A DNA stretch of 43,137 nt from a virus (lineage: Duplodnaviria > Heunggongvirae > Uroviricota > Caudoviricetes). The position numbers were made by a program. The DNA is taken from the IMG/VR virus record IMGVR_UViG_2721755646_000007. One strand, given 5' to 3'. Shown here one piece after another: positions 3,001-6,000 of the stretch. Positions within the stretch are counted from its first letter, which is position 1. Each line of letters opens with the position of its first letter.

Positions 3001-6000
3001 GCGCATCTCTGCCTGAATTTCGGGCCATTTGGCACCAGGCTTACATTTATGCTTAACCCACCCGATGGCATGCAGCTTAAGCTCCGGATACATAGCGTTA
3101 ACTTCTGGCATTTTCATCAACGCTTCAACGATATGGCCGTCGAATGTTGCCATGTCTTCCTGCAACAATTCCTGTGCGCTAATCACCATATCAACAGTGA
3201 TGTTTTCACATGTGTCGAACTTAACCATGACAGCGTTCTGTACTTCAGGGGCCAGGTTGTCAAAAGTGACGTTCATCGGATCGGATTCAGTCTCGACCGG
3301 GACAAAGGAAGCAGACGCCTCATCCCAGCGGTTTTCCTGCATATATTCAGCATCCCAGGAATCGAGGGCAGGGCGGGGTATACCGGGTTTATCCTCGCAA
3401 ACAAGAAATTTATAAGCGCAGTCCTGAGCAGCCGGATAATGTTCCAGGAATTGCCAGTGAAATTTTGCGCGGGCGCGACGTTCATCACCGGCTTCAATGG
3501 CAGTGGCTACAGCGACGGCACCTTCTTCCTTTATTGCCTGTTCGTCCGGAATGGCGGCGCAAATAAAGACTTTACTCATTTTGTTTTACCTCATTACAGA
3601 TTTAAGGGTGAACAAATCCCTGCCATTGCTGGCATATAAGAATGAAATCGGATGTTTATTACGGAACTGTTTTAAAGACCTGCCGGGATTTCGTTATTAT
3701 CCTGGTGAATAACTTTATCGACCGGGTAACAGTTACCGGGAATTTTCTGTTCGGTTGCTGCAGTCACACACTCCTGCATTGTCCTGTGAACACTGACTGC
3801 AATATCAACTGGCTCTCCGGAAACAAGAAAAACTGTCAGAACAAGTGCAAATGCTGTATTCATTGCCAGCATCCTTTTTGTATCGGACGTAAACGGGCCA
3901 ACATTGAAAGAATGCATATTTTATTTAATAGCTCCCGTTCGTGTTTTCTCTTGTTAATGGCATCTTCAGTAAATACAGGGTTACTGATAGTGACACCAAT
4001 TTCAAAACAACCTTCAGACGTATTAACGTTTGGTAATAACGTTTCCATTATCGCGTCCTCAACAATGAATTTTGTGATGCGGTGCCTGGTGCCTCCAGGT
4101 GACGTTAACCAGTTAACAATTAACGCCGGATACAGAGAATCCCCCCATAACACTGTTTTTGGTTTTAACTGTTCCGCGTGCGCTCAGCCGCATTCACCGC
4201 ATCACAAAATTCACTTTAAAAAGGGCGGCAGAGCAGTCACGGAGTAAAACTGATACCGCCAAACGTCACCAGAAAATTGATAACAGAGGGCGTTGCAGCG
4301 GGGTTGTCACTTAAGCGTATGGTCAACCTGACAACCCGGTGTCCTCAACGGGGGAAGGAATAACCCCTCCATACTTACCGCCGCGCCATTTCGCGGATTG
4401 CCACAACCGGAAGCGCACGGTCGACGAAAATTTAACGACAGGCTATCTATGAACCAGCTACCTCGCCGTGCGCTTTCGCGTTATGGTCTGACTTTTCAGG
4501 GAAATATCCTTTCAGTAAACTGTCAGTGCCGTATGCTCACCCGTGTCCGGCGCACGCACTCCACCTCACCCGTGGAGAACTCCTTAATTACCAACCTTAG
4601 CTTCGTTGGTTAGCTATTAACGCGGGTATGTAATCATTCTGGCAATGCTTAATGCCGCTGCTTTTTCCAGATTGGTGATATCCTGCTCCAGAGCGGACAG
4701 ATTTTCAGCCTGCTTAGCCCTGGCTTCATTGGCCCATTTCAGATCCTGCGCTGCATTAATTTTCTGGTGCATCCACTCATAAAGTTCATCATCGGTATAG
4801 TCTGGCGCGATGATGACGGGTTCTCGTTTCTGCATGTCGGCTCCTTGTGGTTAGCGTTGCCTGCTTTTAACCACGTCAGGCGAGGTGGTATCCTCTGAGG
4901 GGTCTGTTACTCGAGAGGAAATTGGTTATGAATACAATCAAGTTTTCTTGCCCAGAATGTGGTGGCGAAGTCTTTGACACATCCTTTAAGCCGCAGGGCT
5001 CTGACAGTTTCGCGGGAGCCATCTGCAAAAATTGTGGTCACCTTGTAACTGAAGATGAGTCCTCGCAGTTCGATGACGAAATCGTTGACAATATCTTCGG
5101 TGCACTCATCAGAGACTTTCTGAAGTAAAGGCGCATACCGCTTAGTTACCGCTCTGATAACTCTTACCTGTCCTGCAATGGCGCTGATGTCAATATAAAG
5201 CGCCATTGCTGCTTCTTTGCCGATCCCGGGATGCCTTCCATTCTGATGTTTGACTTCGCCCACTGAGAAACCCTCTGTTTCCCCTTAACGCCGGGGTAGC
5301 GGAACAAAAACCTGCTGCATAGTTATTAAAGTTGAACCCTGCCGTCATGTTCATACGCCTCGGGCTGGCTACTTAACCCCTGACCACTGCCGGGTAACTC
5401 GAAGTATTTCCCTGCGTTCTGTGGGGCGGGGTGGGTTGGTATTTTTAGTTTAATAAACATTAAACTTAAGTCAAGTAAAAACTAAACCGCGGGACATAAC
5501 AAACACAACGCTTTTGATAAAGTCGTTGCGGTTGTTATGTTTCTATTGGTAGTGAAAGTTAGGGAAACTGGCGTCTTGCGTGGATCACGTTTACTACTTC
5601 AACGCTTGATGTTGTTACGCGGTATAGAATTATATAGTTAGGGTGGGCTACAATCTCACGCAAGCCAGGTACTCTGTCGCTTGGTGGGTATAAATACGGA
5701 TGTTCGGATAACGGCAGCACACAACCCCTTAATCGCTGCCATAAGCGTTCAGCCGCATCTATGTCGAAACGAGCAATATAACTAGTTATATCATCTAGGT
5801 CGGTATCTGCGCTTTCAAGCCATAACACGGGTAACATTTTACTGCTTGCTCCGTTCCTTGCGCATCTTAGCAAAGCGTTCTGCCATTCTGCGCTCAACTT
5901 CGTCATGGGGAATTGCTGGGCGCGGATCTGCAAGGCTCGTTGCTACTTTCGCACGCAGCCATTCGTTGTAACTGTTTTCTTGTTCAATGGTTTCAAATTC

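Follow-up and report, generated by a model that had tools for sequence, protein, structure and literature searches.

An intact dicF-dicB-ydfD cassette lies 3' of the PaaR2/YdaS-repressed promoter PL933P in an Escherichia coli O157:H7 prophage

Does a cryptic prophage of Escherichia coli O157:H7 retain an intact cell-division inhibitor cassette, and is this cassette controlled by the phage repressor? The question is raised by the viral record IMGVR_UViG_2721755646_000007, a stretch of 43,137 nucleotides that we call the window. An earlier reading, made from the sequence without database searches (the sequence-only reading), had placed a DicF small RNA (sRNA), a DicB open reading frame (ORF) and an overlapping small ORF on the minus strand at 3672..4275. 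Together with a leftward operator, these were proposed to form a repressor-controlled host cell-division and lysis cassette. We found all three elements in this interval. We consider it highly likely that they make up the dicBF cassette carried by Sp12/CP-933P, a cryptic lambdoid prophage, and that the cassette works in the steps proposed below.

We scanned the whole window with Rfam at gathering thresholds. The sole DicF match (RF00039) ran from 4274 to 4223 on the minus strand and covered model positions 1-52 of 52 with 76.7 bits (gathering score 48, E=2.4e-15). The annotated 53-nt dicF of K-12 (b1574), including both target-pairing regions, was matched at 53 of 53 positions at 4275..4223 (-) and occurs only once in the window. 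The 3' half of the RNA folds into a hairpin followed by UUUUU (-15.9 kcal/mol, z=-2.3). Thus the Rfam check that had been asked for gave a full-length match, and the sequence taken for DicF with its terminator hairpin is indeed DicF. Alignment to the K-12 prophage Qin and the predicted fold showed that the placement is also that of Qin: the order is ydfC-dicF-dicB, with a precursor region containing the candidate RNase III stem 5' of the RNA. The identification is useful in that the RefSeq records of O157:H7 have no non-coding RNA feature for dicF at this locus.

The ORF that follows after a gap of 174 nt is dicB, as had been predicted. Its 62-aa product aligned with Pfam PF05358 over positions 1-62 of 62 (127.4 bits, cut-off 27) and scored 132.7 bits against NCBIfam NF049927 (CellDivInhibDicB, cut-off 100). 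Mechanical ORF calling gives 97 aa from a GTG at 4153; we placed the start at the in-phase internal ATG, in agreement with the K-12 gene and with the profiles of the family. A GAGGA Shine-Dalgarno sequence lies 8 nt 5' of this ATG. The 97-aa (3860..4153, -) and 81-aa (3672..3917, -) gene models were rejected as upstream extensions of DicB and YdfD, since the 62- and 57-position family profiles and K-12 support the shorter starts. A 201-aa ORF on the other strand (3642..4247, +) was rejected as a gene, being antisense to both dicB and ydfD.

The DicB of the window is 88.7% identical to that of K-12 and differs at 7 of 62 residues (K2E, Q36H, V47L, L55P, M56I, P57Q and A61W), so that the tail LRLMPKGCAQ of K-12 reads LRPIQKGCWQ. 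A homologue search returned 152 matches, all with PF05358, and the 31 full-length sequences, down to 58% identity, were aligned. The window DicB keeps all 20 invariant and all 13 near-invariant columns of this alignment; the seven differences all fall in variable columns, and E2 is the majority state among the homologues. Changes at conserved residues, named beforehand as a sign against DicB, are thus not seen. Yang et al. (2016, PMC4967827) found that the last eight residues of K-12 DicB can be deleted with toxicity kept, that K2 can be changed to A, G or R with the same result, and that L5 is critical. Residue 2 and the last eight residues, the tolerant positions, account for five of the seven differences, and L5 is present. 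K-12 DicB binds MinC's C-terminal domain, and its division block is MinC-dependent (PMC4967827).

The small ORF that overlaps dicB is ydfD. Its product scored 88 bits against Pfam PF07358 (DUF1482, cut-off 25) and is identical to K-12 YdfD at 59 of 63 residues, including both cysteines (C32 and C45), which are conserved in YdfD (PMC8835842). The ydfD ATG overlaps the dicB TGA in an ATGA at 3863..3860, as in K-12, which suggests translational coupling. YdfD alone lyses dividing cells and binds IspG, and co-expression of DicB or SulA prevents the lysis (PMC8835842). Since DicB abolishes this lysis, the expected outcome of a joint transcript is filamentation and not lysis. The proposed cell-division and lysis cassette therefore holds as far as the genes are concerned, all of them intact and recognized by their families. 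For a transcript that carries both dicB and ydfD, where lysis is conditional, the term lysis cassette is expected to overstate the effect. Between the ydfD and exonuclease genes the terminator scan placed a weak hairpin, which is consistent with K-12 data, where no transcript longer than ydfABC-dicFB-ydfD, and hence none extending into ydfE, was detected (Ragunathan et al., 2023, PMC10448788).

Which prophage carries the block? Positions 1..6519 of the window are 99.9-100% identical to Sp12 of strain Sakai; over the first 28 kb, identity to Sakai is 99.1%. The gene order is that of Sp12: ECs_2279 (CI/PaaR2), PaaA2, ParE2, ECs_2282, ECs_2283 (ydfC), ECs_2284 (DicB) and ECs_2285 (YdfD), followed by the exonuclease, the excisionase (xis), the intR pseudogene and ynfA. 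The Sakai annotation calls this position "prophage Sp12, lambda-like phage", ECs_2279 a "phage repressor protein CI" and ECs_2284 a "cell division inhibition protein". Many O157:H7 chromosomes match the 1.1-kb dicBF block at 100% identity, and the first 12 kb of the window, adjoining ynfA, match O157 strains at 100%. Identity of 100% over 12 kb in other strains, against 99.1% over 28 kb in Sakai, argues that the window comes from an O157 lineage other than Sakai. The EDL933 prophage CP-933P has been stated to be identical to Sp12 (Jurenas et al., 2021, PMC8630535), CP-933O, CP-933M and CP-933P carry dicBF (Balasubramanian et al., 2016, PMC5069750), and a review counts four dicF copies in Sakai and 86-24, both of them enterohaemorrhagic E. 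coli (EHEC). The cassette at this locus is already published, dicBF in CP-933P in 2016 and PL933P in 2021. All three products, DicF, DicB and YdfD, are textbook examples of effectors encoded by prophages; the observation, though correct, is an ordinary one and mostly confirms knowledge at the level of annotation.

Comparison with Qin shows how far K-12 results may be carried over. The start codon of ydfC (4835) is exactly where homology sets in, and it runs at 96% through ydfD into the exonuclease gene. The ydfC-to-ydfD block as a whole is ~96-97% identical; gene order, spacing and ATGA overlap agree, DicF is the same, and so are the precursor spacer and the candidate RNase III stem. DicB has its seven residue differences and YdfD has four. 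Upstream the two prophages part: Qin has dicA/dicC, dicBp, ydfA and ydfB, whereas the window has another leader, PL933P, the PaaR2/YdaS/YdaT immunity region and paaA2-parE2. PaaR2 resembles DicA in its C-terminal third only (29% identity over 70 aa). Downstream, the exonuclease, the next gene after ydfD on the same strand, is intact in the window, whereas K-12 ydfE is an IS2-interrupted pseudogene. An IS3-family element likewise cuts the exonuclease copy beside a 100%-identical 1.1-kb block in the O157 strain PV15-279. The otherwise unrelated leaders share one 28-nt island, GTTCCGCTACCCCGGCGTTAAGGGGAAA, with a CCCC/GGGG hairpin and 96% identity, at 5278..5305 (-) in the window and in the K-12 leader (L001:4471-4498). 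It lies directly before the first ORF 3' of PL933P and of K-12 dicBp, and could represent a cis element or a ribosome-binding region common to both.

The leftward operator of the sequence-only reading proved to be the published promoter PL933P, whose cloning primers match the window exactly. A promoter consensus scan placed its -35 (TTGACT) at 5474..5469 and its -10 (TAAACT) at 5452..5447; the TTGACT ... TAAACT pair occurs twice, leftward at 5474..5447 and rightward at 6462..6491. Three copies of a 14-nt operator repeat, AnTAAnCACTAAAC, lie in the paaR2-ydaS interval (OR), and two more flank the leftward -35. The PR933P primers of Jurenas et al. delimit 6422..6495 and their paaR2 primer starts at 6422, again with exact matches, and the interval 5441..6519 is 100% identical to Sakai Sp12. 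A PL933P-gfp reporter was repressed ~100-fold on induction of PaaR2 or YdaS, and leaky PaaR2 already represses it (PMC8630535). At OR, footprints of both proteins have been mapped; the locus is bistable (PMC8630535). The paaR2-paaA2-parE2 operon is the lysogenic-state operon and the source of the PL repressor; it is a complete three-component toxin-antitoxin and immunity module.

We next consider whether transcription from PL933P reaches the cassette. The promoter lies 1.2 kb 5' of dicF on the same strand, and scans of the minus strand from 5447 to 4275 predicted no promoter-like or intrinsic-terminator-like site. Northern blots and RT-PCR (reverse-transcription PCR) in K-12 revealed one transcript, from dicBp through ydfABC-dicF-dicB-ydfD (Ragunathan et al., 2023, PMC10448788), and primer extension gave no internal promoter (PMC10448788). 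In the common lambdoid layout, the gene for a division inhibitor follows 3' of that for the repressor, and dicB has been noted 3' of paaR2 in related immunity regions (PMC8630535). From the position of PL933P, the clear interval, the lambdoid layout and the K-12 precedent, we infer that PL933P drives dicF, dicB and ydfD. Thus, of the proposed repressor-controlled cassette, the repression of the promoter is published and the step from the promoter to dicF, dicB and ydfD is the part that we supply.

Taken together, these results suggest the following sequence of events. During lysogeny, PaaR2, the analogue of CI, sits on the operators overlapping PL933P and keeps leftward transcription off, and YdaS, the analogue of Cro, represses as well; the published reporter assays have shown this for the very sequence found in the window. 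When the PaaR2/YdaS bistable switch releases PL, transcription would proceed leftward through the leader, ydfC and a 340-nt spacer into dicF. The DicF hairpin and U-run would end part of the transcripts; RNase III, cutting at ~4475/4411, would leave ~190 nt, and RNase E would generate the 5' end of the 53-nt RNA. These are steps known from K-12, to which the region is 97-100% identical: there RNase III makes a 190-nt species and RNase E the 53-nt DicF (Ragunathan et al., 2023, PMC10448788), and a fraction of transcripts stops at the DicF terminator while longer ones carry dicB-ydfD (PMC10448788).

DicF with Hfq would then pair with the ftsZ ribosome-binding site and block FtsZ synthesis, and would repress xylR and pykA. 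The ftsZ pairing was validated by compensatory mutations, xylR and pykA are repressed, and Hfq is needed (PMC5069750). Because the RNA is identical, the published K-12 DicF results should carry over, and the validated pairing should do so because the ftsZ leader of O157:H7 is 100% identical by BLAST. Under low oxygen in EHEC, the same RNA would activate pchA translation and hence expression of the locus of enterocyte effacement (LEE), according to a review's account of Melson and Kendall (2019). Transcripts that read through would yield DicB, which in published work binds MinC, is brought with it by ZipA to the septum and takes Z rings apart; the same interaction blocks ManYZ-dependent phage DNA entry. 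YdfD would be translated by coupling to dicB and would bind IspG and lyse dividing cells, a lysis that co-made DicB would suppress.

Several points weigh against this scheme. The link from PL933P to the cassette is inferred, and Jurenas et al. assigned no function to the ORFs 3' of PL933P (PMC8630535). The ~600 nt from PL to ydfC (4836..5440) are unrelated to the ydfA-ydfB region of K-12 and hold an annotated plus-strand gene of the ECs_2282 family (4928..5128). If real, this gene is convergent with PL933P transcription, and read-through could be lowered by such convergence or by Rho-dependent termination. The non-homologous stretch is the main uncertainty of the link. As for the products, the Sp12 alleles of DicB and YdfD would act as their K-12 counterparts do, a role carried over by sequence. 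RNAduplex, moreover, scored DicF against the ftsZ leader no better than mononucleotide shuffles (93/1000); the pairing rests on published genetics, not on this computation.

The same region allows that the cassette is intact yet uncoupled from PL933P: leftward transcripts would stop before ydfC, through Rho or collision, and DicF would come from another promoter or not be made. The plus-strand ECs_2282-family gene, a 66-aa zinc-ribbon ORF that RefSeq annotates (58 bits, cut-off 37), has a promoter-like site of its own at 4911..4938 and a terminator-like hairpin at 5415..5433 (+); the lack of homology to K-12 between PL and ydfC, and of assigned functions for the ORFs 3' of PL, also speak for uncoupling. 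Against this stand the minus strand from 5447 to 4275, free of predicted sigma-70-like promoters and intrinsic terminators, the primer extension data and the common lambdoid layout, and we regard uncoupling as unlikely. Positions 4907..5263 hold overlapping ORFs on opposite strands, a minus-strand one of 99/118 aa (phrog_21318, 220 bits) and the 66-aa plus-strand one for a CxxC zinc-ribbon protein.

The block could also be cargo that is decaying in a dead prophage and now serves no role, intact through recent acquisition only. The prophage ends ~200 bp before ynfA and probably cannot excise on its own, because its integrase is a truncated and frameshifted pseudogene, and the gene products are toxic on overexpression. 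Yet, of the 5426 complete E. coli genomes, 4753 have related dicBF blocks, in a median of 2 places per genome, and the block is found in sequenced free phages too. The three genes and their processing signals are intact, and phenotypes have been published for DicF in EHEC and for DicB in phage exclusion; we therefore give this explanation a rather small chance. That the Sp12 DicB, with 88.7% identity, seven substitutions and four of these in the tail, is inactive or altered in specificity, leaving the cassette to act through DicF only, is very improbable given the variable columns, the majority residue E2, the tolerated deletion and K2 changes, the critical L5, and a 90%-identity cluster of 689 member sequences headed by this very allele.

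We therefore retain the PL933P-driven dicBF cassette as our reading. Joining the PaaR2/YdaS/PL933P and dicBF literatures yields a hypothesis open to direct test, namely that among the four dicF copies of EHEC one, together with its dicB-ydfD, would be under a bistable switch that responds to stationary phase. If so, DicF-dependent virulence regulation and DicB-dependent phage exclusion would be heterogeneous within a population. This coupling, and the organization of DicF-like RNAs described below, make up the residual novelty.

The RNA 5' of DicF has features of its own. In the alignment to Qin, the 340-nt ydfC-dicF spacer is as conserved as the genes, and it folds better than shuffles (z=-2.8). 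Its 10-bp stem (4475..4466 with 4420..4411) is present in the minimum-free-energy fold, and the 3' arm ends 137 nt 5' of DicF, where the 190-nt species would begin, which makes it a candidate for RNase III cleavage in the window copy. Between this stem and DicF lies a conserved structured module of ~135 nt (4418..4284), which also occurs, at 75-89% identity, in phages without the DicF seed: Stx2c phages, cdtI, 2H10, P7 and P1 (module at L004:1501-1623 and, in P1, at L005:1501-1654). No Rfam DicF match was found in these seedless carriers. A scan of IMG/VR by a 15-nt loop motif gave 120 extractable stretches; the DicF seed was present in 77 and absent from 43, a few of the latter being chance matches outside the module. 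Behind the module stand about 10 different 3' cassettes, each ending in a GC-rich hairpin and U-run, several of them followed by a conserved dicB leader.

RNAalifold on 14 representatives predicted an outer stem enclosing three hairpins, that is a four-helix junction. At the predicted pairs 96.6% of cells hold a base pair, a share that drops to 32-63% on sliding the partners, and five pairs show compensatory changes, a value reached in 7 of 500 shuffles. Conservation of the structure by covariation is suggestive only, because the structure came from these same, closely related sequences. Rfam at permissive thresholds (3600..5600 of the window, and the P1 and Stx2c loci) gave no family covering the module. 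The only match in 3600..5600 besides DicF was STnc100 (RF02076) in the dicF-dicB spacer, sub-threshold at 39.7 bits (E=1.2e-6), the gathering score being 47. P1 has a weaker STnc100-like match 5' of tciA (L005:2842-2961).

Two known systems invite comparison. The dicF-like region of P1, 3' of the C1-controlled promoter Pban, shares ~100 nt of the module at 76% identity, with helices kept by compensatory changes. As in the window, it is followed by a hairpin-plus-U-run terminator and lies just 3' of a repressor-controlled early promoter. In contrast to the window, it has no DicF seed, no Rfam DicF match and another 3' cassette, and is followed by tRNA genes and the ban operon rather than dicB. 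The putL/putR sites of HK022 are structured RNAs 5' of the first terminator in lambdoid early operons without N, an analogy of position and function only. Having located putL by its published primer, we rejected a put-like antiterminator as the identity of the module: only a 9-nt word is shared (E=0.29) with no collinear similarity, and put forms two stem-loops in ~70 nt, whereas four helices are predicted in ~125 nt of the module. A scan of genome contigs for the 16-mer GCGGCGGTAAGTATGG was rejected as a test of range, since nearly all of the at least 120 matches listed were chance matches in unrelated phyla; among those listed, the only true ones were in Escherichia species, and a Neisseria group was a coding-region coincidence.

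A tentative and, in our judgement, doubtful extension is that the module is a functional element by itself: a mobile four-helix scaffold that lambdoid and P1-like phages carry behind early promoters under repressor control, with interchangeable seed-plus-terminator cassettes, and with the PaaR2/YdaS switch making the DicF/DicB output of this copy vary from cell to cell in EHEC. DicF would then be merely the commonest of about 10 sRNA variants on one scaffold, which could govern sRNA processing or stability, or terminator read-through into dicB or ban. A scaffold with swappable seed cassettes would, if upheld, be of interest to sRNA biologists. A widespread group of dicF-like prophage sequences has reportedly been described before (by Faubladier and Bouche, in 1994).

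The features discussed above, with the immunity genes and the flanking genes, are collected in Table 1.

Table 1. Coordinates of the cassette, its promoter region and its neighbours in the window.
Feature	Position	Strand	Basis or remark
Integrase, truncated frameshifted pseudogene (intR in Sakai)	67..749	-	
Exonuclease, 823 aa, C-terminal Rv2179c-like 3'-5' exoribonuclease domain	1108..3579	-	Pfam PF16473, 222.7 bits; phrog_2082
Weak terminator-like hairpin between ydfD and exonuclease gene	3621..3634	-	Terminator scan
ydfD, 63-aa DUF1482 lysis protein	3672..3863	-	Pfam PF07358
dicB, 62-aa cell-division inhibitor	3860..4048	-	Pfam PF05358; NCBIfam NF049927; K-12 DicB
dicF-dicB spacer and dicB leader, 11-bp long-range stem GTGATGCGGTG/CACCGCATCAC	4016..4225	-	
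dicF, 53-nt DicF sRNA	4223..4275	-	RF00039; identity to b1574; hairpin fold
DicF 5' single-stranded seed		-	
DicF terminator hairpin	4224..4260	-	
DicF U-run, directly 3'	4218..4222	-	
Conserved structured module directly 5' of DicF, ~135 nt	4284..4418	-	5' part of known K-12 190-nt RNase III product
Candidate RNase III hairpin AAGCGCACGG ... CCGTGCGCTT	4411..4475	-	Perfect 10-bp inverted repeat, 4475..4466 with 4420..4411
ydfC, 72 aa	4617..4835	-	71/72 identity to K-12 YdfC; RefSeq "protein YdfC"
PL933P promoter/operator fragment	5441..5558	-	Exact match of published cloning primers
Operator repeats at PL	5452-5465, 5474-5487		
parE2	5559..5837	-	Pfam ParE_toxin
paaA2	5839..6030	-	Pfam PaaA2
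paaR2, CI-like repressor	6051..6422	-	Primer match; Sakai ECs_2279
Operator repeats at OR	6438-6451, 6477-6490, 6496-6509		
ydaS/ydaT region, opposite strand to paaR2 operon	6520..7244	+	Same as CP-933P/Sp12

Elsewhere in the window, the early-right region holds a hok/sok type I toxin-antitoxin locus at 11120..11294 (+) and 11289..11444 (+), with an Rfam sok match of 116.9 bits and hokD annotated in RefSeq. Three prophage tRNA genes (ileZ, argN and argO in Sakai) lie at 14210..14456 (+), 3' of the Q antiterminator gene, and are followed by a TerB/TciA-like gene. A full-length STnc100 sRNA (101.8 bits) is found at 15234..15406 (+), 3' of Q and the tRNA cluster and 5' of the gene for a 616-aa SASA-family esterase (15544..17394).

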